Source: Dehalococcoidia bacterium (lineage in GTDB: Bacteria; Chloroflexota; Dehalococcoidia; GIF9; UBA5629). From it: DNA of 64,000 bases. Location of the stretch: contig DAOTVU010000040.1 of assembly GCA_034436215.1 (NCBI GenBank), positions 17,780-81,779 on the forward strand, written 5' to 3'. Of the stretch, positions 1-34,445 are shown piece after piece; within the stretch, counting starts at the first letter, position 1; every line of letters starts with the position of its first letter. The notes beneath the pieces were generated by a model. It saw only the letters and a program-made list of their open reading frames with translations. It was not told where the DNA came from and ran no database searches. The position numbers and the translations under genes are program-made.

Positions 1-2188
1 TTTATTTTTAGCGAGCGACCCGATTATTAGAGAAAAAAACATCGAATTTATGCGCCAGAACGGGCTGGATGCTGATGGTTCCGAGGAATTACTCGAAGGA
101 CTTCTTAAGCTCGATAAGAATGGGTATGATGTCGTTATTATAGATGATGAGTTACAGGATATTAATGGTTACGAAGCATGTATAAAGGTCAGACAGCAGT
201 ATGAAATAAGTATAATTTTACTCGGGACAGTACCCGAGTCGGAGGCATGGTCCAGAATAGATGAGCTTGGTTTTGACCTATATTTAAAGAAGCCCGTAAG
301 TCCCCGTGAATTACTTGCCCGGGTAAAAGCGTTGATACGCAGACCGCTGGTTGAACGTAAAGCTGGAGGGGGAAAATCTCCGGAAGTTCCATCTACTTTA
401 TCAATTCCGGACAGGATGCAACAGGTAGCAGGATCTTCTACAAAAATGCCCGTACAGAATAATCCGCCAGTTGCAACCCAGCGTTTTACTCAGCAGGAGA
501 TAACCACCGGGGCGGCACCTGGAACCAAACTTCCAGTGGATAAAAGCGAAGATCGCGGCGAAGCAAAAATACCGCAGCACCAGGTATTCAACCAGCCTCG
601 TATGCCTGAGCCTCTAATTGATGCAGGCCGAGCAGAATCATCCTCTACTCCAACAGATTTCTCAGCGGCATATTCCAGGGAACCGGTTACGCCAGTACCA
701 CCCCCACCATCTGGACCACCCGATCAACAATACACTTACCAACAATCGACTACCCAGACCATCAAGCCTGCAACAGCCGAAATACCCGAATCAGTACCGG
801 TATATTATCCCGCCGAACCGAGTACGGATGTTCTGGCGGATGCCAGGATCATCAAACTGGTGGAGGCTCTGGTAAACGGCAAACTTGCGGATATAAATCC
901 TGTAGTGGATTTTAATCTAAAAATGGGTTTTGCCTATCCTGCGGTGGACAGTCTTCTCGATACCAGCGATCTGGAAACACTGAAAATTCTGGAAAATCTG
1001 GCTGCTGGCGGTATCCTCATCAAGGAGCCTTATGAAAGGTTTTATGTTGACCCCGACAATATGTTCCAGCTTGTGCCGATGGAATGCTGCCCGCATTGTG
1101 ATAATTGTGATCTGGTAAAAGGACAACTGGTAGAGCATTTTGCCTGTGGCTATGTCGGTCTGGATAAAGACTTCAAGCAGGATAGCCGCTACGTGTGTCC
1201 TAAATGCCGGAAGGATTTAAGACTTATAGGCACCGATTATCGAAATATCGGTATTCATTACCGTTGTGAGAGCTGCAACGAGATATTTACAACGCCGGTG
1301 GTTAAATGGCGTAATCTCAAGACACGAAAAGTGTGGAATTCTGAAGAGCTCAGGGAAATAGAAGTTTATTCATATCGCTTCAGCCCTGATAAACGGGGGT
1401 GGCTGGAATTCCAGTTAAAACCCAAAGCGCAATTGGTGGATTTTCTCAGATCACGTGGCTATCAGGTACAGGAGCTGGCGCAGATGACCGGACGCTCAGG
1501 CGCGGTTCATACGATAGATGTAATGGCTATCAGGGATGACGTTATCACCAGAATCAATCTCGGTATCGGCCTGCTGGTAGCTAATACCGGCGAGCCGGAG
1601 GTCGGATTGGATGCGCTTTTCAGATATGATACGAGAACCTACGATGTTGGTATTAATTATAAAGTAGTTATTGTGATACCAAAACTGAGTACTGAAGCCA
1701 TGAACTTCGCCAGACGGCAGATGATACGCGTGTTTGAAGCCAAAACACTGGCCTCAGTGGTTTCTAATATTACGGGCACTCCTCCCGTAGATACGAGCCG
1801 GCAGGACAATACGATTGTGGTAGATACCAGCAATGCACTGGGTAACGCAAGGTCGATTCTGACCAGGTTTCTTAGAAACAGGGGATATGAAGTCTATGAG
1901 CAGGCGTTGATTGTGGGAAAATCGGGCGTGGAACATATTTTTGATATTTTTGCACGCAGGGATGACCGAATTATTATCCCGACCATCGCTGTCGGTATAG
2001 CAATATCCCGTGGAAACCAGCCAGTGGAGATGGATGAGATATCCCGTTTTGACGCGGCGGCTTTTGATTCTGGGATCAAGAACAAAGTGTTTGTGGGAAT
2101 ACCATACATAAGTCTGCAGGCCAAGCAGTTTGCACGACAGCAAAAAATAGATATCCTCGAACAACAGGATTTAAATAAGATTATGTAA
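1..2188 (+). CDS. Response-regulator receiver (REC) domain protein, 5' partial (reading frame is open to the window edge). Carries a Pro/Gln-rich linker, a C4 zinc-ribbon cluster and two tandem degenerate Mrr_cat-like restriction-endonuclease-fold domains.
   Basis: The frame of the 50..2188 ORF stays open back to nt 2 (LFLASDPIIREKNIEFMRQNG...). The N-terminus matches the REC consensus: DPxIRE in helix 1, phospho-acceptor in VVIIDD, LGT (conserved Thr) and LKKPVSPRELLARVKALIRR (conserved Lys plus helix 5), so the true start is upstream of the window. Zn cluster ECCPHCDNC...CPKCRKD...CESCNE lies at nt ~1079-1280. Two homologous ~115-aa repeats (nt ~1430-1755 and ~1848-2165) share the motif RGY-V-E-x6-G(R/K)SG-x-H-(T/I)-(I/F)-D-(V/I)-x-A-x-RDD. 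Their layout matches Mrr_cat, but the catalytic (Q/E)xK is replaced by GIG/VGIA. Confidence 0.6.
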   Translation, partial: LFLASDPIIREKNIEFMRQNGLDADGSEELLEGLLKLDKNGYDVVIIDDELQDINGYEACIKVRQQYEISIILLGTVPESEAWSRIDELGFDLYLKKPVSPRELLARVKALIRRPLVERKAGGGKSPEVPSTLSIPDRMQQVAGSSTKMPVQNNPPVATQRFTQQEITTGAAPGTKLPVDKSEDRGEAKIPQHQVFNQPRMPEPLIDAGRAESSSTPTDFSAAYSREPVTPVPPPPSGPPDQQYTYQQSTTQTIKPATAEIPESVPVYYPAEPSTDVLADARIIKLVEALVNGKLADINPVVDFNLKMGFAYPAVDSLLDTSDLETLKILENLAAGGILIKEPYERFYVDPDNMFQLVPMECCPHCDNCDLVKGQLVEHFACGYVGLDKDFKQDSRYVCPKCRKDLRLIGTDYRNIGIHYRCESCNEIFTTPVVKWRNLKTRKVWNSEELREIEVYSYRFSPDKRGWLEFQLKPKAQLVDFLRSRGYQVQELAQMTGRSGAVHTIDVMAIRDDVITRINLGIGLLVANTGEPEVGLDALFRYDTRTYDVGINYKVVIVIPKLSTEAMNFARRQMIRVFEAKTLASVVSNITGTPPVDTSRQDNTIVVDTSNALGNARSILTRFLRNRGYEVYEQALIVGKSGVEHIFDIFARRDDRIIIPTIAVGIAISRGNQPVEMDEISRFDAAAFDSGIKNKVFVGIPYISLQAKQFARQQKIDILEQQDLNKIM

Positions 2189-2236
2189 ATAGGTCAGGGG
2201 TAGTAAGATAATAAGTACAACCAATAAAAGATCTTT

Positions 2237-3757
2237 ATGAATAATATATTTCTCGTCCTGACCGCTATAGTATTTCTGGTTTTGCTTACCGGGATTTTCT
2301 ATTTTATGCCCCTCGAGTCTATCTGGATAGCCGCCGGTGTGTTGCTTGCTATATTGCTTTACCATTTCTTATCCCGGCTCATCAAAGGAAGACAGATCAG
2401 AGAACCGAAACCCAGTAAATGGCAGAACCTTAGCTCACTTCTCGTTATCTTCATAGTTATCTTTGTACTTTTCGTGGTCATATTGCGTGAAGCTGTATCT
2501 TCTATCATGATCCATATACTGCTGGTATCCCTGATTTTTACCATGATGATAAATTTTCTTACCGTTCCACTGGCTATATTTCATAAATTGAGGGAGAAAA
2601 AGCAGGTTTCAACATCCAGCGATTTTAAGCCGAGGGTGAGTATTATCGTACCAGCCTATAATGAGGAAAAAGTGGTTGCCAGAACTATCGAGACCCTTCT
2701 GGAGGCAGATTATCCTAATAAAGAGATAATAGTTGTCGACGACGGCTCAAAGGATAATACATATGCAATTGCTTCGAAATATATTAATAAAGGGGTAAAG
2801 GTTGTCCACCGGCCTAACGGGGGCAAATTTGCCGCCCTGAATACCGGTATTGCCATGTCGTCAGGTGAAATTATTGTTACGGTGGATGCAGATAGTTTAA
2901 TAGCACGCGCCGCCATTGCTGAAATCGTAAAGGGATTTGAAGATCCGGAAGTCGCGGGCGTTGCAGGGAATTTAAAGGTATTTAATACGGATAAACTGAT
3001 CGGAAAGATACAGGCACTGGAATATATCGTCCAGATACAGGTTGTACGCCGGGCTTTCGAAAATTTCGGATCATTGACTGTTGCTTCGGGAGCATTCAGT
3101 GCCTTCCGCAAAAAGGCACTCGAAGAGATCGGCTGGTATGATCCCGATTATCTACTCGAGGATTTTGATATTACTATCAAATTGCTCAAATCCCACAGGA
3201 TATTACATGGGAACAACGAAGCTGTATGCTATACTGAAGCACCGGAAACGCTGCGCGACGTTTACAGACAACGACTGAGCTGGTTCCGTGGAGACTTCCA
3301 GAATTTCTGGAAACACCGCGATACTTTCTTCAATCCCAGATTTGGCATTATGCACAAGCTGACCTTTCCTTACATGCTGATCTCAATGACACTGGTACCC
3401 ATAGCCAGTATCGTGGTGATCATTACTTCAATTATCATGTTGATAAATGGTGAGTGGATGACTTTATTATTAGCATTTGCATTATTCACCACTTTGCAGA
3501 TATTGTTATCGATAATAGCCATTCTGATTGCAGAAGAGGATCTGAAACTGGTAATTTACGCGCCATTATTTATTGTCGGCTATAAGCAATTTCTGGATTT
3601 TACCATGCTAAAAGCCCTTATCGATATCATACTTGGCGGTGGTACATATCTGCGCCGCGAAAGGGTTGCCAGGGTAGGTGATTCTTCTGCGGGCAGGCGT
3701 ACGCCAAATGAGAATCTAACCACACAGACAGCAACCGAAACCGGTAAAAACACTTAA
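2237..3757 (+). CDS. Family-2 processive glycosyltransferase (membrane-embedded polysaccharide synthase, PgaC/IcaA/BcsA/NodC-like)
   Basis: N-terminal and C-terminal TM helices flank a GT-A domain. Motifs seen: SIIVPAYNEE, DDGSKDNT, VTVDADS (DxD) and QRLSWFRGDFQ (QxxRW, the processive-synthase signature). Confidence 0.8.
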   Translation: MNNIFLVLTAIVFLVLLTGIFYFMPLESIWIAAGVLLAILLYHFLSRLIKGRQIREPKPSKWQNLSSLLVIFIVIFVLFVVILREAVSSIMIHILLVSLIFTMMINFLTVPLAIFHKLREKKQVSTSSDFKPRVSIIVPAYNEEKVVARTIETLLEADYPNKEIIVVDDGSKDNTYAIASKYINKGVKVVHRPNGGKFAALNTGIAMSSGEIIVTVDADSLIARAAIAEIVKGFEDPEVAGVAGNLKVFNTDKLIGKIQALEYIVQIQVVRRAFENFGSLTVASGAFSAFRKKALEEIGWYDPDYLLEDFDITIKLLKSHRILHGNNEAVCYTEAPETLRDVYRQRLSWFRGDFQNFWKHRDTFFNPRFGIMHKLTFPYMLISMTLVPIASIVVIITSIIMLINGEWMTLLLAFALFTTLQILLSIIAILIAEEDLKLVIYAPLFIVGYKQFLDFTMLKALIDIILGGGTYLRRERVARVGDSSAGRRTPNENLTTQTATETGKNT

Positions 3758-3803
3758 ATTATATACGTGCAATGATGGTATCTTCTTAAGAGGAATTTTA
3801 AAA

Positions 3804-4769
3804 GTGAAGGAAATCTTAGACTATTATGCCGGAAAAAGAGTCCTGGTTACAGGCGGTGCCGGTTTTATCGGTTCGCATCTGGTTGAGAAATTGCTCAACC
3901 TGCAGGCATCCGTTAGCGTAATCGATATTATGCTGTGCGGAAATAAAATAGCCCATCTGGAAGGAAATAAGAATTTAAGGATATATAAAGCCGATGTAAC
4001 CGATTTACAGGCTATCACTCCCTTTTTTGATGGGCAGGACATTGTTTTTCATATGGCCGCAGTTGTGGGCGTTGAAGAAACACAGGACGAGCCGGTCAAC
4101 CTTCTCAATGTCGAGGTAGGAGGCACTGCCAATGTAATAGCACTGGCAGCAAAAAACAAAGTACATAGGTTTATTTTTGCTTCATCGTCCGAAGTCTATG
4201 GGGATTCTGCCGAGCCTATGAAGGAAGATGGCCCTTTCAATCCAAAGTCAACCTATGCACTTGCCAAGCTGATCGGCGAGCATTACTGCAAAGCTTATTA
4301 TAAAAAATATGGCCTCGAATATACTGTACTGCGCTATTTTAACTCGTATGGTCCTCGACAGGACGAGCGCTTCGTACTTTCTCGTTTTATTACGAGAGCT
4401 TTAAACGGGCACGAACTTCACATTTATGGCGACGGAACGCAAACGCGCGATTTCACCTACATTGATGATAGCGTTCATATGACCCTCCTGGCTGGCGCTA
4501 TGGTGACTGGTATTAATCAAATTTTTAATTTCGGTACCGGTCGTGCAGTGTCAATAAATACGCTGGCCGATCTTGTTCTGCAAAAACTGGGATTAAAGGA
4601 CAGGGTACCTGTCAAACACGTAGACTATGATCACAGAAGGACCCGGGAAATAGAGGTATTCCACAGGCTGGCCAATGTAGATCTGGCAGAGAAATTACTG
4701 GGTTACCGCCCGTTAATAGACCTGGAGACCGGAATCGAGAAATGCATTGCATGGTATCGCAGCCGCTGA
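3804..4769 (+). CDS. NAD-dependent epimerase/dehydratase (UDP-sugar 4-epimerase / UDP-glucuronate decarboxylase-like, extended SDR)
   Basis: GTG start. Rossmann motif VTGGAGFIGSH and catalytic YxxxK (YALAKLIGEHY). Length 321 aa, typical for the family. Confidence 0.85.
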   Translation: MKEILDYYAGKRVLVTGGAGFIGSHLVEKLLNLQASVSVIDIMLCGNKIAHLEGNKNLRIYKADVTDLQAITPFFDGQDIVFHMAAVVGVEETQDEPVNLLNVEVGGTANVIALAAKNKVHRFIFASSSEVYGDSAEPMKEDGPFNPKSTYALAKLIGEHYCKAYYKKYGLEYTVLRYFNSYGPRQDERFVLSRFITRALNGHELHIYGDGTQTRDFTYIDDSVHMTLLAGAMVTGINQIFNFGTGRAVSINTLADLVLQKLGLKDRVPVKHVDYDHRRTREIEVFHRLANVDLAEKLLGYRPLIDLETGIEKCIAWYRSR

Positions 4770-4783
4770 TATATGCAGACCAG

Positions 4784-6610
4784 CTATTTGGTAACCGATT
4801 TCTGACAAACGGAATAATTGTACCATTGTTCGAAGGTAGTTATCGTTCCCTGCTTTTTTGTCCAGTTGATTATTGGTTGAATCAAAGCGATCTTCTCTTT
4901 ATCAATGGTGCCATCTGAACGCACAAAGGCGTCGGGATGTATCGTGATGGCAGCTACCCCCAGATAACCAAGCAAGTAACATAAATTGGTCCCTATTTCA
5001 TTATAAAATTGTTCTTCATAGGCCGCATGGTATCTGCAGTAGTCAGCAATGCCGGCAGGCCGGCTGATATCAATTACATTACCCCATACCAGCCTTGTCT
5101 CATCCCACTCGCAAACATCGCTGGCAGTCGGTATTCGGTACATGCCCGCAGGATTCTTATGTCCATCTACGTCAACAGGCTCAACCGAGGGATTGGGCTC
5201 TTCGGTTATATGAGTGGAAAATATTTTGAAACCCGCATCCTGTACAGCCAGATATCCCATTCTATCCCATGAATCGGTAGGTACCGTTAAGGCCACAGGG
5301 TCCAAACCGAAATACTTTGCATAGCTATCGCGGGCTTTTCGAAGTTTCAATTTAATGTCGGTATATTCAGTTTGTGAACGGGCAGTATCGAGCTGGTAAA
5401 ACTCCCAATCATATCCGTGGACGCTTATACCGACCACACCCCGGTTGAGGTAATCCTTTATCCAGGGTATATCGTATGAATCGGCACCGTCGGCATTCGA
5501 CACTATGCCCAGATCAAGAGGTACATTATTTTTTTCGAACAGCAAAATTATCTCCCTGACAACATCCTCATAATACCCCTTAGCCACGTCATCGAGCCGA
5601 AAAATTATAGCTGGACCTCCATTGTAAGCCGGCATAATGCGTTTACCGGTCGTTGCCTCAGTCCACCGCACCTGGTAGCTGTACCAGTCCTCGGCAGAGG
5701 TTATGTCACCCTTCAATTGTAAGGTTTTAATCAAGCCATACAGCTGAGAGATCCGCAGAGGATCCACTTCACCGTTTGTATTGATAAATGACGATGGTAG
5801 TATTTCAACTGCTGCAGCCGCATTCCGATCAAGGGTCTGGTCAATAGTAGATTCAACGGCCTTATCAACTCTGGATAATATAGCAGTGTTTATAGCCTCA
5901 TTAGCCTTACCTTTCCTGGGCGGAGGAAGAGAATAGTCCAGGGTAGCCACGATAGGTAAGTAGTAGATACCTCGCGAGTCAGGCATTATCGACTGCGATT
6001 TATGGTCCACCGAAGGATTGTATGTATTTTGATAACCGGTGGCAATTACTCTGAAACCGGCGGCCAAAATCGCCGAATAGTTTATCTCTGAAAAATATAA
6101 ATCCGGTAATAAGCATGTCATAGGTTCATGTCCGAAGAAATCAGTTAACTCCTTGCGATATTTTGAAAGGTCGTCTATCAATTTACCGTAAAGCGGATCG
6201 TTTTTAGAAGTATCTGCCTCAAGCCATGCAATTGAATTACCATCAAAGCAGATATTTATCATGCCAGCATCAACAAAATCCTGTAAATATTTTAAGCTAT
6301 CATAGCTGCCATTCCCCGGTAAAGGCGGCAGAGCTACCTCTACTGCGACCCTTTGCCGTCCGAAGATCCGGATAATCTGATCCGTAGCCGATTTAAGGCT
6401 GTTATCGATTTGACTGATGATGAATACAATGGCACTACGATTACCCACATATGGGGGTGTGCTCACTTTACGTGTATGAATTTGCTGAACCTGTGATTTA
6501 TCGGGTTCCTGTCTCACCTGCGTTACAGGTATATACGAACATGCAATGATCGTTAGAAGGGTAAAAAATATGGCTAATTTTAAACCGCAGTTTACTATAC
6601 TGGATTTCAT
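4784..6610 (-). CDS. Lipoprotein with a C-terminal polysaccharide-deacetylase (CE4/NodB)-like domain and an N-terminal domain of unknown (possibly hydrolase) function; PelA/PgaB-like architecture
   Basis: Signal peptide plus lipobox (LLTIIAC). The C-terminal half has CE4-like motifs IIFRLDDV (cf. TFDDG) and SVHGYDW (His motif); the rest is divergent. 608 aa. Confidence 0.4.
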   Translation of the reverse strand: MKSSIVNCGLKLAIFFTLLTIIACSYIPVTQVRQEPDKSQVQQIHTRKVSTPPYVGNRSAIVFIISQIDNSLKSATDQIIRIFGRQRVAVEVALPPLPGNGSYDSLKYLQDFVDAGMINICFDGNSIAWLEADTSKNDPLYGKLIDDLSKYRKELTDFFGHEPMTCLLPDLYFSEINYSAILAAGFRVIATGYQNTYNPSVDHKSQSIMPDSRGIYYLPIVATLDYSLPPPRKGKANEAINTAILSRVDKAVESTIDQTLDRNAAAAVEILPSSFINTNGEVDPLRISQLYGLIKTLQLKGDITSAEDWYSYQVRWTEATTGKRIMPAYNGGPAIIFRLDDVAKGYYEDVVREIILLFEKNNVPLDLGIVSNADGADSYDIPWIKDYLNRGVVGISVHGYDWEFYQLDTARSQTEYTDIKLKLRKARDSYAKYFGLDPVALTVPTDSWDRMGYLAVQDAGFKIFSTHITEEPNPSVEPVDVDGHKNPAGMYRIPTASDVCEWDETRLVWGNVIDISRPAGIADYCRYHAAYEEQFYNEIGTNLCYLLGYLGVAAITIHPDAFVRSDGTIDKEKIALIQPIINWTKKQGTITTFEQWYNYSVCQKSVTK

Positions 6611-6690
6611 AACATAATATTAAGGATTTAATTGCGATGAGTCAAAATACGGTCAGAAGTTCATCCTACGCCGTAAAATACGTTATTATT

Positions 6691-7746
6691 ATGTGTATGC
6701 ACCGTAAATTTGCAACTGCCGAAATAATCATAATTCTATTATTTACCACATTTACCGGATGTGTATTTAAGCCTGATGGTACTAACATAACATTGCCGTC
6801 ATCGAATTTATCTGAAAACAGAGGTAATTTGACTTCATCGAGGATCATATACACAATGAAGGGCGTAGGCATCGATTTGCCGCCGGATGATTTTGCTGAT
6901 ATGAAAAAAGCAGGTATCGAAATACTGGGAACAGAGTGGGGTATGGAGGAAAGCATTGTGAGAGTAAGAGCTTTCCTTGATCAGGCAGAGAAAGCCGGAT
7001 TAAAGGTGGTGATGGATGGTGGTTTCAGTTATACCGCCTGGGGGTTCACAGATGATGATTGGGACAATTTGCCGCCTGGCAAACATCCCGTATGGCAAAA
7101 GGAAAGAGTTCAGAAATGGGTGGATGCCTTGAAGGATCATCCGGCTATATATGCCTGGGATATATGTAATGAATTCGGCGAAAATCTGCCCAGCGGAGCC
7201 GGTATCAGGGGATCAGATTGGCCCAGAGGTCGAATAACCTTGGAACAGATCAAACAGGCAAAGGCCGATATACAGGCAATAGACCCGACAAGACTGTTTC
7301 ATCTGCGAATGTACGGCTGGAACACTGAAAAAATGGAACCGCATATAAATGCGTTACTCTCGAGTGGGATAATAGATATCATATCTTTAAACCTGTATTC
7401 AAACTATCTGGAGAAGGGCAGGCTTGAATGGCCCGGGGTAATTCAGGATGCAGGACAATATTATGTTGATAAAATCAAAGAGCTTTCTCCCAAAACGAAG
7501 GTCTGGTTATCTATAGCGGCCTTTGAATATCCGGGGATATTTCAGCGGCCCACTAATTTTTCATTGATCAGAGATTTGAAATCTGCAACCAGAATAAAAA
7601 ATCTGGATGGGATTTCCTTTTTTTGCTGGGGCCCGGTTAGTCAATGGGATGACAAATGTAACTGGTACCTGCCGCAAACAGGAACCGATATATGGGACAT
7701 AATCAAAAGATATTTAAAGGATCCGCAGAAATTTGTCGCAAACTGA
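6691..7746 (+). CDS. Glycoside hydrolase, (beta/alpha)8 clan GH-A (GH5/GH113-like), lipoprotein
   Basis: The ORF opens at 6637; the likely start is an internal Met at 6691 or 6697, just before a lipobox (LLFTTFTGC). DICNEFGE matches the GH-A acid/base NEP motif and AAFEYPG is a candidate nucleophile Glu. Confidence 0.5.
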   Translation: MCMHRKFATAEIIIILLFTTFTGCVFKPDGTNITLPSSNLSENRGNLTSSRIIYTMKGVGIDLPPDDFADMKKAGIEILGTEWGMEESIVRVRAFLDQAEKAGLKVVMDGGFSYTAWGFTDDDWDNLPPGKHPVWQKERVQKWVDALKDHPAIYAWDICNEFGENLPSGAGIRGSDWPRGRITLEQIKQAKADIQAIDPTRLFHLRMYGWNTEKMEPHINALLSSGIIDIISLNLYSNYLEKGRLEWPGVIQDAGQYYVDKIKELSPKTKVWLSIAAFEYPGIFQRPTNFSLIRDLKSATRIKNLDGISFFCWGPVSQWDDKCNWYLPQTGTDIWDIIKRYLKDPQKFVAN

Positions 7747-7762
7747 TATTTAATTAGCTCTG

Positions 7763-9163
7763 CTATCGACTTATATTCAATAATTCCCTGGCTGCACGTT
7801 CGAGGTCAGGATCGTCTGTAAGCTCAATACATTTTTCCACATCCTGTCGGGCTTTAACCATATCGCCTAGCTCTTTATAGATTATTGCTCTGGTGTAGTA
7901 GGCCACCGCCATTTCATAATCGATTTTAATAGCCTCATTGCTATCCTTCAATGCCCGATCTAGTTCGCCTTTCTTATAATAGCACCAGGCGCGCCTGTCA
8001 TAAGCCTGAGCAAGCTTCGGATTGAGTTCAATTGCCCTATCGCAGTCCTTTATAGCATAATCCCATTGAGACAGGTTTATATAGGCCCATGCTCTGGTGG
8101 TATAGGCAAGAGCAAATTTGGGATTCAGCTCAATGGCTTTAGTAGCATCTACAAGCGCAAGATTATAAAGATGCTTCAATATGTAACCCCACGCACGCAT
8201 GTTATAAGCCAGAGCAAAGTTCGGATTCAATTCTATTGCTTTATTGCAGTCGTCCATCCCCATGGTCAACCAGTCCCGCGTGTAATCATATGATACCTTT
8301 TCAAAATAAACCCACGCTCTCATTGTATAGGCAAAAGGCAATTGGGGATTTAATTCGAGCGCTTTATTACAATCCTCAATAGCGATATCATGTCTTCCTT
8401 TCATTGTATTGGCCCATGCACGGTTTACGTAGGCCGTAGCTAATTTCGGTTCAAGCTCGATTGCTTTATTGCAATCTGCTATTGCCAGATCATATCCTCC
8501 CGTCTGGTTATATGCCCATGCGCGGTTAACATAGGCCAGAGGGATTGTCGGATCAAGATCGATGGTTTTGTTGCAATCTTCGATAGCCTGTTCATATTTG
8601 CCCATTTCATTATAAGACCATGCCCTGTTCATATAAGCGATAGCCCTGCCCGGAGCGATATCAATGGCACGATTACAGTCTTTAACAGCTTCTTCATATC
8701 TGCCTTTGGCATTCAGCGCCCATGCCCTGTTGATATATGCCAGTTCATTACGGGGGCTGATATCTATCGCCCTATCACAATCGGCCAGAGCCAGATCATA
8801 CAGGCCTTTTTCATTATAAGCCGAAGCGCGTGTGATATAGGCAAGCGCCATCCGTGAATTAATAGCCAGCGCCTTATTGCAATCCGCTATCGCAAGATCG
8901 TATTGACCGATCTGGTTGTAAGCCAGAGCCCTGTTTACAAAAATGATAGCTTGATGAGAGTCTCTGCTTATGGCTAAGGTGTATTCATCGACTGCCCTAT
9001 CATACTGTTTTTCGGCATAATAAACATTGCCCTTCTTATAATGCTCGGTTGGGGAATCAAGAAGATTACAGGAAGATAATACAGGCATCACTAAAGCTAT
9101 AAACACTATAACTGCTATGCTGGAAAATAATGTGTATATGCTGGCGTTCTTCGATAAATGCAT
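7763..9163 (-). CDS. TPR-repeat lipoprotein (about 12 tandem 34-aa TPR units)
   Basis: Lipobox VLSSC, followed by repeated A-Y-x-N-R-A-x-A-Y / AI-x-DC-x-KAIEL-(N/D)P units throughout. Confidence 0.8.
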   Translation of the reverse strand: MHLSKNASIYTLFSSIAVIVFIALVMPVLSSCNLLDSPTEHYKKGNVYYAEKQYDRAVDEYTLAISRDSHQAIIFVNRALAYNQIGQYDLAIADCNKALAINSRMALAYITRASAYNEKGLYDLALADCDRAIDISPRNELAYINRAWALNAKGRYEEAVKDCNRAIDIAPGRAIAYMNRAWSYNEMGKYEQAIEDCNKTIDLDPTIPLAYVNRAWAYNQTGGYDLAIADCNKAIELEPKLATAYVNRAWANTMKGRHDIAIEDCNKALELNPQLPFAYTMRAWVYFEKVSYDYTRDWLTMGMDDCNKAIELNPNFALAYNMRAWGYILKHLYNLALVDATKAIELNPKFALAYTTRAWAYINLSQWDYAIKDCDRAIELNPKLAQAYDRRAWCYYKKGELDRALKDSNEAIKIDYEMAVAYYTRAIIYKELGDMVKARQDVEKCIELTDDPDLERAARELLNISR

Positions 9164-9235
9164 TTGCAGTTAAGTATATCCAGAATGATGGGAATAGCAC
9201 AACTTACCTTGACGTATATATCTGGTTAATCTACT

Positions 9236-9265
9236 ATTAGACTAACGATTATTAGACTAACGATT
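9236..9265. repeat. Perfect tandem direct repeat, 2 x 15 bp (ATTAGACTAACGATT), in the divergent intergenic region
   Basis: Read directly from the sequence at 9236-9250 and 9251-9265. It sits between the TPR gene start (9163, minus strand) and the GT2 start (9339, plus strand). Confidence 0.9.
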
Positions 9266-9338
9266 ACAGGCGGTGAATTTACGCTGAGATGGCTTCCGGT
9301 CAGCGTTATATCTGCGTGATATCGACAGGATAAAATAA

Positions 9339-10697
9339 ATGATTTACTGGCTGCTACAACTGGCCGATCTTGTCTATTACCACATCTTCCATATATTCTT
9401 TGCATTTGGCCTTTTTTGCTGGTTTATCTGGACACTGAGATTGATGTTATCGGCTCCTTACAGGCCTTTTAAGACCGACGGGCCATTTAGACCACCTGTT
9501 TCTGTACTGGTTCCGGTGTACCACGAGCAAAGCACTGCACTGATTGAAAGTCTCGGGTCGATGATCAGATACACATCTGCTGAAGATGAGATACTGGCAC
9601 TGATAGATGTGCGTGATAAAGCGGCATTGACACCGGGGGCGTTGCCCCACCATCCCCGCCTGAAGATACTGGTAGCACCGCCGGGCAAAAGGCCTGCGCT
9701 GGTTGCCGGATTCCAGGCCGCGGTAAACCCCATAGTGTTAATTACGGGTAGCGATACACAGTTTAACAGAAATACCGTATCGGAATTAGTCAAGCCATTC
9801 ATAGACCCACAGGTTGGAGGCGTTACGGGTCAGGTGGTTACGTCCAATGATCGCGGTATTGGCGGAAAATGCTACGAATGGGGCCTGGTTCTTCGCAATA
9901 AGATGATTTATCCAGCCATGAGCCGGAGCAATACCGTTCACGTGATGAACGGAGAATGCTATGCCGTCCGTAGAGAGCTGGCACTAAAACTTACTCCCGA
10001 ATTTTTAAACCAGAAATTTTTAGGTAAGTTATGCGATTCGGGGGATGATGGTTGGATGACCACACTGGTGCTGAAAGAAAATTACAAGACAGTCTATCAA
10101 TCTACCGCTATTGCTTACACTAACCCGCCCAACAGCTTTGACGAATTTCTCAGACAGCAATTAAGGTGGAACAGAAATTCTACCAGGCGTTCTCTTATGG
10201 TTCTGACCAGAGCATGGGCGTACAAGCACGGTTTTATGTACCCATTTCAATTGTTTATTGCGCTGGTTAAGCTTCCTTTCTGGGTTGTTGTTATTGCACT
10301 GGCCGCATATCGTTTCTTTTTTGGTCATGATATAGGTGTGGTGGCTGCATCCTGGTTTGATCCCTGGTGGCATATTTTCCGACCGTTGATTTTTGTGGCA
10401 GGTGTCGTTATTATCCGTGCGTTGCGAGGTCTTCCCTATCTAATCAGCGAACCAAAAGCTCTTTTGTTCTTGCCCCTTTATGCTTTTATTTCCCCGTTTA
10501 TTTTAGCTCCTTACAAGCTCTATGCAATGATGACGGCGAGAGATACTAAGTGGCTGACAAGAGGCAAGGAAGGGGAAGAAAAGAAGACTGCTGCCGGTTA
10601 TGTCACCACCGGGGCGATAATTATTTGTATTCTATTCAGCTTGCCCTTGATTGCACTGGGCTCAGCTCTGGCCGATGATGATGCCGATTCTTATTGA
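9339..10697 (+). CDS. Second family-2 glycosyltransferase with QxxRW motif (polysaccharide synthase-like, multi-TM)
   Basis: VSVLVPVYHE, ITGSDTQ and QQLRWNRNSTRRS (QxxRW). N-terminal and C-terminal TM segments. Confidence 0.75.
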   Translation: MIYWLLQLADLVYYHIFHIFFAFGLFCWFIWTLRLMLSAPYRPFKTDGPFRPPVSVLVPVYHEQSTALIESLGSMIRYTSAEDEILALIDVRDKAALTPGALPHHPRLKILVAPPGKRPALVAGFQAAVNPIVLITGSDTQFNRNTVSELVKPFIDPQVGGVTGQVVTSNDRGIGGKCYEWGLVLRNKMIYPAMSRSNTVHVMNGECYAVRRELALKLTPEFLNQKFLGKLCDSGDDGWMTTLVLKENYKTVYQSTAIAYTNPPNSFDEFLRQQLRWNRNSTRRSLMVLTRAWAYKHGFMYPFQLFIALVKLPFWVVVIALAAYRFFFGHDIGVVAASWFDPWWHIFRPLIFVAGVVIIRALRGLPYLISEPKALLFLPLYAFISPFILAPYKLYAMMTARDTKWLTRGKEGEEKKTAAGYVTTGAIIICILFSLPLIALGSALADDDADSY

Positions 10698-10705
10698 TAA
10701 TTTGA

Positions 10706-11743
10706 TCAATTATAGCCCTTAATTACTCTATTAAGAGCTGCCATGAATCTTTTTTTACCTATCTCTGCATATAATATTCGAACACGTCCGTTAGGGTCAC
10801 CACCTTCATACCACATTCTTACGCGGTCGCCTTCGACAATAATGCTGGGGGAGGTTGACCATTTTTCATCGTATCTGCCGGGAGTTTGTCCGTGGACAAA
10901 AAGAAGTCCGTTCTTCACCCAGTTCTTCCCATCTTTACTGCTGGCAAGATATAGATTAAGGTAGTCAGCCATAGTGAATATTATGCAATAGCTATCGTCT
11001 ATCCTGAAAGCCGTGAGATTTCTATAAACCTGCGTTTCTCCGATAGATGGGTCCGGCGACAATACTTTACCCTTTTTATTCCATGATAGGCCGTCGCTGG
11101 ATTCGGCCAGACCGTAAAATGTCCATCCCGGATTCTGTTTACCATAGCCTTTATAGTACATAAGATATTTATTATCCACTTTTATTACGGTGTGTTGACC
11201 GCCAGCTCCCTCGTTATCCCAGGCGTTGCTTGTCTTACGTAAAACCGGGTTGCCGTCATAGCGGCTCCAATTTACGCCGTCTGATGATGATGCATAACAT
11301 GCACATCCACCATATGCTTCGGCGCCATACCACATTTTATAGATACCATTTTCATATATAACTGTCATAGGATCTATTTTATCCCCTTCATAATCAGTCG
11401 AGGGCGTCATACATACACCGGTTTTTATCCAGATTATGCCGTCATCCGATGTCGCACGCATTATCCTGCCGACTTTGTCTGCAAAACTCTGTCCGCGATA
11501 CCACATAACATATAAATTATTGGCGAGTTTAACAACTACGGGTGATTCGATCGATTTATCATCGGGACTGCCTGGACTACCGAGGTCAATTACTACACCC
11601 TTCAACATCCATGGTAAGGCGCCAGTTCCCACAACTTCAAGGTCAGCAGCTTTATAAGCTGTTAGCTCAAAGACGAATATAGCAACTACCGAGATAATTG
11701 TAATAGACAGCCCGATAACAAGAAAAATAATCTTACTTTTCAA
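10706..11743 (-). CDS. Membrane-anchored BNR/Asp-box beta-propeller protein (sialidase/GH33- or GH43/GH130-like glycosidase fold)
   Basis: N-terminal TM anchor. Three Asp-boxes of the form S-x-D-G-x-x-W (TSDDGIIW, SSDGVNWS, SSDGLSWN). The repeated hydrophobic beta-strand pattern fits a propeller. Confidence 0.5.
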   Translation of the reverse strand: MKSKIIFLVIGLSITIISVVAIFVFELTAYKAADLEVVGTGALPWMLKGVVIDLGSPGSPDDKSIESPVVVKLANNLYVMWYRGQSFADKVGRIMRATSDDGIIWIKTGVCMTPSTDYEGDKIDPMTVIYENGIYKMWYGAEAYGGCACYASSSDGVNWSRYDGNPVLRKTSNAWDNEGAGGQHTVIKVDNKYLMYYKGYGKQNPGWTFYGLAESSDGLSWNKKGKVLSPDPSIGETQVYRNLTAFRIDDSYCIIFTMADYLNLYLASSKDGKNWVKNGLLFVHGQTPGRYDEKWSTSPSIIVEGDRVRMWYEGGDPNGRVRILYAEIGKKRFMAALNRVIKGYN

Positions 11744-34096: not shown

Positions 34097-34445
34097 GGGG
34101 GCGCGTGGCTTCGACAGGGAAAAGCCTACAGTATGGCAGGCCGAGGTGCTATCAACCTCGTAAATCTGGTAGCAAAAGACAACTGCCGAAGAAGCAGTTC
34201 CTGTAGCCGCCTAATTTAGGAGGCTCGTCCAACCTTTCCTCGTCCCGGTGGGAAGGGATTGGGCGAAGAAATGCTGGGATGCACCAGCCCCATGCCGATA
34301 AGGCTGGCCAAGATATAATCGGCTGGCCCGCTCAAACTCGGCCGAGCAGAGGTTGATCGGGTGAGATTAAAATGCCGGCTATGCCTGTAGAGGTACTGGC
34401 AACTTTTTTCTGGACGGGGAGTTCGACCCTCCCTCGCCTCCACCA
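34097..34445 (+). ncRNA. ssrA: tmRNA (ssrA), ~349 nt, with encoded 3' CCA
   Basis: 5' end GGGGGCGCGUGGCUUCGACAGGG and 3' end GGACGGGGAGUUCGACCCUCCCUCGCCUCCACCA. They form a 7-bp acceptor stem with a G3:U wobble, the alanine identity element, plus a T-arm. The internal tag frame (34173-34214) ends ...AEEAVPVAA-TAA (stop at 34212-34214). The gene is directly downstream of smpB. Confidence 0.85.

Follow-up and report, generated by a model that had tools for sequence, protein, structure and literature searches.

The gene at the start of the analysed window, a 64,000-nt stretch of a Dehalococcoidia genome, encodes a protein in which a receiver (REC) domain is joined to the output domain TackOD1 and to two nuclease-dead Mrr-like domains. 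Its relatives, found in bacteria and archaea, are encoded next to a polysaccharide synthase or else next to the motor of a type IV pilus, so that its most likely role is control of a cell-surface polymer, not DNA cleavage. In our best reading the protein serves the adjacent exopolysaccharide synthase as an accessory or regulatory subunit, gated by a signal. To the more specific proposal, i.e. that it is an atypical TackOD1-family response regulator whose output end is a conserved cytoplasmic partner of the adjacent PgaC/IcaA-like GT2 synthase, we give about even chances. The grounds are direct observations (domain identities, loss of the catalytic motif, gene pairing, and a parallel pairing or fusion with pilus ATPases), from which we infer action at the protein level, gating by the REC domain and the nature of the polymer.

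The gene occupies positions 1–2188 of the plus strand. Its frame is uninterrupted from nt 2 to the stop codon at 2186–2188 (728 codons, + strand frame 2), and there is no in-frame stop at the window edge, which bears out the initial annotation in placing the REC N-terminus beyond the annotated Met. The gene had also been considered 5′-truncated, and comparison with the near-identical protein P0001 (732 aa; two residues differ on inspection) and contigs L001 and L002 revealed that only the first 11 nt, completing the four codons for MNRI, are missing upstream of the edge. Upstream extension thus placed the start at MNRI, and detected a GAF-HisKA-HATPase_c kinase two genes upstream on both contigs. 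The predicted order of domains was confirmed by reading of the ORF and by domain matches: REC, a 163-aa linker, a winged helix with two zinc sites, and two homologous Mrr-like domains. Because the full architecture is common to more than 120 protein clusters, the possibility that the ORF is an artefact was rejected. No second copy of TackOD1 or of the Mrr-like domain was found elsewhere in the window.

The REC domain (positions 2–349) was identified with Pfam Response_reg (PF00072; score 46.2 bits, cutoff 30.2, E 5.8e-12) and matched the receivers of PhoP, PmrA and ArlR in PDB with E values around 1e-12. It had been described as complete-looking, which holds for Asp52 (kept in 98/99 homologs), Thr/Ser80 (87/99; Thr80 in the query) and Lys101 (100/101; P0001 numbering throughout), but not for the acidic pair after strand 1 (E-D in PmrA and PhoB). 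In the alignment to PmrA the query carries Ala/Ser8-Ser9 at this site, and the family columns read S (92/95), then S/N, then a conserved Asp10. With Ser-Ser replacing the acidic pair, the domain is not fully canonical and, judging from these residues, may not be phosphorylatable; the conserved Asp10, one position further on, could stand in for the pair. A profile search of the protein gave no match to Trans_reg_C (PF00486) of OmpR/PhoB-type regulators, and NCBIfam OmpR-family models matched the REC region only, far below their cutoffs. The linker (350–838) is of low complexity and rich in Pro, Gln, Ser and Thr (26 Pro, 14 Gln and 32 Ser+Thr in 163 aa). Among 96 homologs it is between 44 and 456 aa long, and residues 1–5 of the structure model, its only linker residues, had pLDDT values below 50.

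The region downstream of the linker corresponds to TackOD1 (PF18551; 109.4 bits against a cutoff of 32, E 2e-31, model positions 10–187 of 188). This output domain of archaeal response regulators was described in 2018 as occurring "also in some bacteria" and having a function that "remains obscure" (Galperin et al. 2018, PMC5847659). The zinc-ribbon cluster, previously regarded as a separate unit, is part of this published domain together with about 80 preceding residues. The cluster is indeed conserved, but instead of the four CxxC motifs originally reported it contains three CxxC and one HxxC, which make up two sites, C367/C370/H383/C386 and C403/C406/C426/C429; the additional "CDNC" Cys of the query is not conserved. 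The published domain has eleven conserved Cys, in five CxxC and one HxxC (PMC5847659). This pattern is absent from the present clade, where only C-x2-C / H-x2-C / C-x2-C / C-x2-C is found, and is retained completely by distant single-domain relatives.

The winged-helix part of TackOD1 (839–1075) has DNA-binding regulators of the MarR/ArsR/Lrs14 type as its best structural neighbours. It is acidic (pI 4.3), and so is its presumed recognition helix, SDLETLKILENLAAGG. The beta-rich double zinc-ribbon part (1076–1399; conserved metal sites C3H and C4) is basic (pI 8.5), as is the first Mrr-like domain (pI 9.45), which is compatible with nucleic-acid binding. PDB structural neighbours were found for the winged helix only and none for the zinc-ribbon part, while the 459-aa C-terminal sequence gave no significant match in PDB, only weak zinc-finger noise.

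A REC domain followed by a DNA-binding output is the commonest design of response regulators. The protein might thus be a transcription factor in which an operator is bound, under REC control, by the winged helix and the zinc ribbons, perhaps with help from the dead Mrr domains, so that the GT2 operon is turned up or down; its paralogs would play the same role on pilus operons. We consider this rather unlikely, yet deserving of attention. The basic zinc-ribbon part and first Mrr domain speak for it, as does the capacity of inactive PD-(D/E)xK domains to retain DNA binding, whereas the acidic winged helix and recognition helix speak against it. Conversely, both the basic regions and the resemblance of the TackOD1 N-terminus to DNA-binding regulators weaken the case for a protein partner.

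The two Mrr-like domains (1418–1780 and 1853–2185) are 38% identical (E 2e-26), which confirms their supposed homology, and both were found to have the restriction-endonuclease-like PD-(D/E)xK fold that had been ascribed to them. Mrr_cat (PF04471; cutoff 21) scored 14.8 bits for the first, better conserved domain and 29.6 bits for the second. A profile of the repeats reached AF1548 (PDB 1Y88) at E 0.15 in PDB, which a single-sequence search did not. In the resulting profile alignment (AF1548 "EIDVVAERDGERYMIECKFH") the Asp is retained in at least 90% of sequences. Opposite the E-C-K of the AF1548 motif IECK, repeat 1 has N-L-G and repeat 2 has T-I-A, hydrophobic or small residues that are not conserved, and family-wide neither repeat has a conserved acidic or Lys residue at the (D/E)xK position. 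The repeats therefore have no catalytic Glu or Lys, in accordance with the earlier view that the Asp was kept and (D/E)xK lost. Polar residues are retained near the degenerate active site (E19, G25-x-S27-G28, H31, D34, D41, D71 and D76 in repeat-alignment numbering), in both repeats as well as in PilB-fused copies. The structure model (pTM 0.55) had Can2, Card1 and NucS among its structural neighbours.

The Mrr-like domain, tandem in the query family and triplicated in P0115, is not the peculiarity of this protein that it had appeared to be: hundreds of proteins of 310–350 aa, from archaea and bacteria, have one dead copy after TackOD1. Homologs are publicly annotated as "response regulator" or "restriction endonuclease", and the latter label, together with the Mrr_cat match, would speak for a two-component system controlling a defence protein or a still active restriction endonuclease of the Mrr type (type IV). 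We rejected this highly improbable reading, as the catalytic motif is lost and, with no defence neighbourhood, polysaccharide or pilus genes form the context in at least 63 of the 73 loci described below. In contrast to AF1548, the query domain is tandem and never occurs here in a restriction-modification context. NA-iREase1 (PF22722) likewise has an Mrr-like REase fold that has lost its activity and serves a non-catalytic purpose. It was matched by 3 of 21 repeats (best E 7e-7), most repeats not reaching it, and is defined by NACHT/STAND NTPases in conflict systems, none of which are present here.

The gene of the membrane GT2 synthase (2237–3757, plus strand) begins 48 nt past the stop codon of the regulator. 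It was assigned from Pfam, NCBIfam and synteny as PgaC/IcaA-like, its score against NCBIfam PgaC_IcaA (213 bits) lying under the equivalog cutoff. A promoter and terminator scan of positions 1–5000, performing at chance level, placed no terminator-like site in the 48-nt gap. Next come (i) an NAD-dependent sugar-nucleotide epimerase/dehydratase (3804–4769, plus strand) and (ii) a DUF2334-like protein (4784–6610, minus strand; weak match), which may have a role of the polysaccharide-deacetylase type; both are syntenic in the closest clade. The remainder of the putative exopolysaccharide locus (6637–10697) encodes a 369-aa protein without assigned identity (plus), a TPR protein (minus) and a NodC-like GT2 (plus), the second GT2 of the locus. 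In this lineage the regulator closes a cassette in the order GAF histidine kinase, OmpR-type regulator, REC-TackOD1 protein, in which the OmpR-type regulator is of the canonical DNA-binding type, with an E-D acidic pair.

Relatives of the protein are encoded in at least 244 GTDB species genomes, and nearly all of the 80 that we inspected are labelled Dehalococcoidia/Chloroflexota. Among 73 non-redundant Dehalococcoidia loci, each with at least 1.5 kb of downstream sequence, 53 had the homologous GT2 in the same orientation at a distance of up to 700 nt. Within the clade sharing ≥60% identity, this GT2 was present in all 22 loci, REC in 18/19, and the kinase plus OmpR regulator in 15/19. The GT2 link suggested in the initial annotation was thereby substantiated, and it recurs in archaea. 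The GT2 neighbour was absent from 3 of 11 loci in the 45–60% identity band, which we counted against a protein partner.

Analysis of the more distant relatives revealed a second type of context. A REC-less paralog clade (35–42% identity) resides in type IV pilus operons that hold PilB-MshEN, PilC, pilins, PilD, PilT-like proteins and PilM/N, in agreement with the published occurrence of arCOG06883 in thaumarchaeal type IV pilus loci (PMC4858521; see also PMC5847659). Three full-length proteins, P0193, P0200 and P0224, have the order (dead Mrr)x2-MshEN-T2SSE without TackOD1, and P0200 is located inside a pilus operon; these fusions make the dead-Mrr pair a part of the machine. Four representatives were sampled for the contexts in archaea and in other distant relatives. 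For a Nitrososphaerales TackOD1 protein (324 aa, one Mrr-like domain), the gene 41 nt downstream encodes a GT2 with 41% identity to the GT2 of the window (E 1e-105), another relative adjoins another chitin-synthase-like GT2, and one precedes an archaeal-type pilus ATPase cluster. A bacterial relative, from candidate division WOR-3, has neither context, which also counts against a protein partner.

The gene is always co-oriented with, and directly upstream of, its presumed target. This position is also typical of transcription factors and weakens the protein-partner interpretation, as does the possible loss of REC phosphorylation. Regulation of transcription by this protein is, on the other hand, at odds with the OmpR-type regulator already present in the cassette, with the fusion of the dead-Mrr pair to PilB-type ATPases in the absence of any winged helix, and with the tight two-gene pairing in archaea and bacteria, which is more typical of subunits than of regulators. 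We favour action on a protein partner because of this apparent division of labour with the OmpR-type regulator, the acidic winged helix, and the combination of GT2 synteny, archaeal pairs, pilus paralogs and PilB-type fusions. There is a precedent in MshEN, by which pilus ATPases as well as the GT2 synthase NfrB are regulated (PMC8669469).

The cassette suggests a branched pathway, in which the OmpR-type regulator would set transcription, while the REC-TackOD1 protein would act on the synthase by direct binding, switching polymer synthesis or export on or off. Across the flexible linker, the REC domain would gate the output module through its phosphorylation, or else solely through contact with the kinase or another protein; the latter is considered because the acidic pocket is Ser-Ser. 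As for the two dead Mrr domains, they would act as a pseudo-dimer that docks a partner or binds a ligand, and not as a nuclease.

A further alternative, to which we assign a small probability, is that the dead Mrr domains serve mainly as ligand sensors, reading a nucleotide second messenger, another phosphorylated small molecule or nucleic acid and passing the signal on to the synthase or pilus motor, much as c-di-GMP is relayed by PilZ and MshEN. The module occurs with the same two types of machine that PilZ and MshEN serve (PMC8669469). The polar constellation kept in the repeats and the PilB-fused copies, the presence of Can2, Card1 and NucS among the structural neighbours, and a GGDEF/HD-GYP gene next to the locus in one relative point in the same direction. 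Against this, no known ligand-binding family was matched, the Can2 and Card1 matches concern nuclease domains and not the CARF sensors, and a protein interface would explain the conserved residues equally well. To our knowledge, moreover, archaea with the TackOD1/dead-Mrr module generally lack c-di-GMP enzymes.

The fusion of REC to inactivated Mrr domains had been thought to be undescribed. This is not wholly so, since REC-TackOD1 is a known class of archaeal response regulators; the Mrr-like domain is the part not found in the published description, which mentions neither it nor a GT2 link (PMC5847659). Like the archaeal proteins, the query has REC followed by a winged-helix and Cys-rich zinc domain (E 2e-31), and both are associated with cell-surface machinery. 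The archaeal type example, NKOR_04565 (318 aa), has no linker and no space for an Mrr-like domain, whereas the query has in addition a low-complexity linker of about 160 aa and two dead Mrr domains, and has two zinc sites in place of the 11-Cys, three-site pattern. Unlike those proteins, it is bacterial (Dehalococcoidia) and has as genomic partners a GT2 synthase and the kinase/OmpR cassette. Searches of the available literature yielded nothing on TackOD1 beyond the 2018 description, and nothing relevant on inactive restriction endonucleases with type IV pili or NACHT, or on Dehalococcoidia pili with exopolysaccharide.

Functionally, the query module resembles PilZ (BcsA, Alg44) and MshEN (NfrB; MshE/PilB), which recur with processive GT2 synthases and pilus ATPases as separate or fused modules (PMC8669469), and the PgaD/IcaD accessory subunits of PgaC/IcaA synthases are comparable cytoplasmic regulatory modules. 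None of these has any sequence or fold relationship to TackOD1 or dead Mrr, and in the PilB fusions the dead-Mrr pair is N-terminal to MshEN. PilZ and MshEN are c-di-GMP receptor modules, whereas control of the query appears to pass through a two-component kinase. Tentatively, TackOD1 with dead Mrr may represent an ancient control subunit that archaea and bacteria have in common and that serves PgaC-like GT2 synthases and type IV pilus ATPases, parallel to PilZ/MshEN and possibly reading a ligand at the remodelled nuclease site, with REC fusions linking it to two-component signalling.

Three points are new: (i) outside the short REC-TackOD1 forms, the regular partner of TackOD1 is a nuclease-dead Mrr domain, (ii) in Dehalococcoidia and Nitrososphaerales alike, the gene for this module is paired with that of a PgaC-like polysaccharide synthase, and (iii) fusions of the dead-Mrr pair to PilB-type pilus ATPases exist. 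Besides correcting misleading "restriction endonuclease" annotations, they together point to a previously unrecognised class of regulators of adhesion and biofilm machinery in uncultured Dehalococcoidia and ammonia-oxidising archaea, in which control of the cell surface is poorly understood.

The query frame (+ strand, frame 2) is uninterrupted from its first complete codon (nt 2) to the stop codon at 2186-2188, and the ATG at nt 50 given in a mechanical listing is internal to it. A near-identical protein from two other assemblies (P0001, 732 aa; two residues differ on inspection) supplied the four codons (MNRI) that lie beyond the window edge, which bears out the initial annotation of the gene as 5' truncated. 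Pfam analysis of the query protein revealed three domains in total: Response_reg (residues 6-109, E 5.8e-12), TackOD1 (PF18551; residues 283-459, E 2.1e-31) and Mrr_cat (PF04471; residues 619-728, E 2.9e-8). The receiver (REC) and TackOD1 are joined by a Pro/Gln/Ser/Thr-rich linker of 163 residues (44-456 aa among homologs).

The receiver had been described as complete-looking, and Asp52, Thr/Ser80 and Lys101 (P0001 numbering) are indeed kept across the REC-bearing family. However, in its end-to-end alignment with the receivers of PmrA, PhoP and ArlR, the E-D pair of PmrA corresponds, ungapped, to Ala8-Ser9; the family carries Ser (92/95) and then Ser/Asn at these positions, followed by a nearly invariant Asp10-Pro11. 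The OmpR-type regulator encoded immediately upstream has an ordinary acidic pair (I-I-E-D). Given this replacement, the query receiver is atypical: it may be phosphorylated weakly or via the shifted Asp10, or may act independently of phosphorylation.

TackOD1 was defined as an archaeal response-regulator output domain, "also in some bacteria", in which 11 Cys are conserved and whose function is obscure (Galperin et al. 2018; PMC5847659), and is contained in thaumarchaeal type IV pilus loci (Galperin et al. 2018; PMC4858521). Compared with the published domain, only two metal sites (C367/C370/H383/C386 and C403/C406/C426/C429) are conserved in the query clade; the full five-CxxC-plus-HxxC pattern is retained in distant relatives. 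Neither the Pfam model nor the domain as described in 2018 extends into the Mrr-like region.

As initially annotated, this region comprises two homologous domains, repeat 1 (nt 1418-1780, +) and repeat 2 (nt 1853-2185, +), which share 38% identity (E 2e-26). Searched alone, repeat 2 passed the Mrr_cat threshold but repeat 1 fell short of it; among 21 isolated repeats of the family, 19 matched Mrr_cat and three NA-iREase1 ("inactive REase"). In a repeat-profile alignment with the Mrr-type reference structure AF1548 (PDB 1Y88), the Asp of "EIDVVA" is retained in at least 90% of sequences, while the (D/E)xK motif, "IECK", corresponds to non-conserved N-L-G (repeat 1) and T-I-A (repeat 2). Both repeats should therefore be nuclease-dead, as had been proposed, and it is very unlikely that the query is an active restriction enzyme. 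The repeats have in common a striking polar set (E19, G25-x-S27-G28, H31, D34, D41, D71 and D76; repeat-alignment numbering). That the remodelled site is a ligand sensor seems rather improbable as the primary description of the protein, and such a role could overlay either a synthase-subunit or a transcription-factor function.

REC, TackOD1 and Mrr_cat occur together in more than 120 protein clusters (90% identity), and relatives are encoded in at least 244 GTDB species genomes; the 80 inspected loci are labelled almost exclusively as Dehalococcoidia or Chloroflexota metagenome-assembled genomes. An exhaustive HMMER search yielded 2021 clusters (50% identity), many of them proteins of 310-350 aa, including those of Nitrososphaerales archaea and candidate division WOR-3 bacteria, for which the query match spans TackOD1 through the first Mrr-like domain. 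Since their consensus retains the G-x-SG-x-x-H-x-F-D motif, the dead Mrr domain is the usual companion of TackOD1. Several variants were also noted. P0115 (L006 8001-10469) carries three dead Mrr repeats, and its REC is so degenerate that Pfam misses it; the synthase gene still lies directly 3'. P0211 (743 aa; truncated UDP-glucose dehydrogenase-TackOD1) and P0228 (600 aa; TackOD1 and dead Mrr fused to a rubrerythrin domain) are either real fusions or gene-calling artefacts. Some homologs were called without REC (e.g. P0067, 507 aa); 5' of one of these, a 1.1-kb uncalled gap (L007 6836-8001) contains a REC-like tblastn match, and a misplaced start site or a frameshift probably accounts for the missing REC in several such synthase-linked entries.

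The GT2 synthase gene downstream (2237-3757, +) best resembles PgaC/IcaA (213 bits, under the equivalog cutoff), and a promoter/terminator scan detected no terminator-like site in the 48-nt gap preceding it. Of the non-redundant Dehalococcoidia loci, 73 extend far enough downstream to be surveyed; a homologous GT2 follows within 700 nt on the same strand in 53 of these, in line with the suggested link to the synthase; eight have a PilB-type ATPase within 4 kb and 12 have neither. In the clade of at least 60% identity, GT2 is present in 22/22 loci, REC in 18/19, and a kinase plus OmpR regulator in 15/19. Upstream extension in two relatives (L001, L002) located a kinase, the gene order being divergent UDP-glucose dehydrogenase, GAF-HisKA-HATPase kinase, OmpR-type regulator, query homolog, GT2 and a sugar-nucleotide epimerase/dehydratase. 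Outside Dehalococcoidia, four representatives were sampled: a Nitrososphaerales TackOD1 protein (324 aa) is encoded 41 nt upstream of a GT2 with 41% identity to that of the window (E 1e-105), a second adjoins a chitin-synthase-like GT2, a third lies 5' of a KaiC-like ATPase, T2SSE and two T2SSF genes (an archaeal-type pilus locus), and the single WOR-3 locus has neither context.

In the window, GT2 is the first gene of a larger putative exopolysaccharide locus (3804-11743: epimerase/dehydratase, DUF2334-like, unknown 369-aa, TPR, a second NodC-like GT2 at 9339-10697, and GH32/43-like), most of which is syntenic in the closest clade. A GGDEF + HD-GYP gene adjoining the UDP-glucose dehydrogenase of one close relative (L007 1594-3312) hints at c-di-GMP input. 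A tmRNA gene (34097-34445, +; Rfam 157 bits; ARAGORN tag peptide AEEAVPVAA) establishes the window as bacterial chromosome.

The most distant clade (35-42% identity, without REC) consists of the pilus-linked copies, and the two of the 12 "neither" loci that were looked at are also pilus loci (PilD, pilin, PilT-like ATPase, PilM/N). REC-less paralogs (447-466 aa; TackOD1 and two dead Mrr) reside in Dehalococcoidia type IV pilus operons encoding PilB-MshEN, PilC, pilins, PilD, PilT-like ATPase and PilM/N (L084 5573-11152; L072, L076, L077, L078, L081, L083). Three Met-initiated, full-length proteins (P0193, P0200, P0224) lack TackOD1 and carry two dead Mrr domains followed by MshEN and a T2SSE ATPase, P0200 being encoded in an operon with PilC and pilin; thus, the pilus motor protein can itself incorporate the dead-Mrr pair. 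The same tandem precedes MshEN-T2SSE in P0181 and at L095 700-3108, just 3' of a gene (L095 165-590) whose product resembles, by eye, a Roadblock/LC7-type protein. MshEN sets a precedent, as a single regulatory module that serves pilus ATPases as well as the GT2 synthase NfrB (PMC8669469), and the TackOD1/dead-Mrr module likewise occurs with both types of machine.

Taken with the parallel pilus context and the PilB fusions, the conserved pairing of the two genes argues that the module would act with the machine and not as a nuclease. A serious rival, which we nevertheless consider fairly unlikely, is that the query is a winged-helix/zinc-ribbon transcription factor (presumed recognition helix, SDLETLKILENLAAGG). 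Against this, the cassette already contains a bona fide OmpR-type transcription factor, the winged helix of the query is acidic (pI 4.3), the PilB fusions have no winged helix, and the gene pairing spans the archaea-bacteria divide. All four points speak for a protein-level mode of action, and hence for the reading in which the query would be a signal-gated accessory subunit of the GT2 synthase, to which we give an even chance.

REC-TackOD1 has already been described, so the query does not represent a novel type of protein, contrary to the initial impression of an undescribed family; that impression holds for the tandem dead-Mrr extension, of which the literature searched makes no mention. The same literature neither recognises the dead Mrr domain as part of the wider TackOD1 family nor reports the PilB fusions or that the pairing with GT2 extends over two domains of life. 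The query family supplies a concrete, testable hypothesis for TackOD1, an orphan domain.
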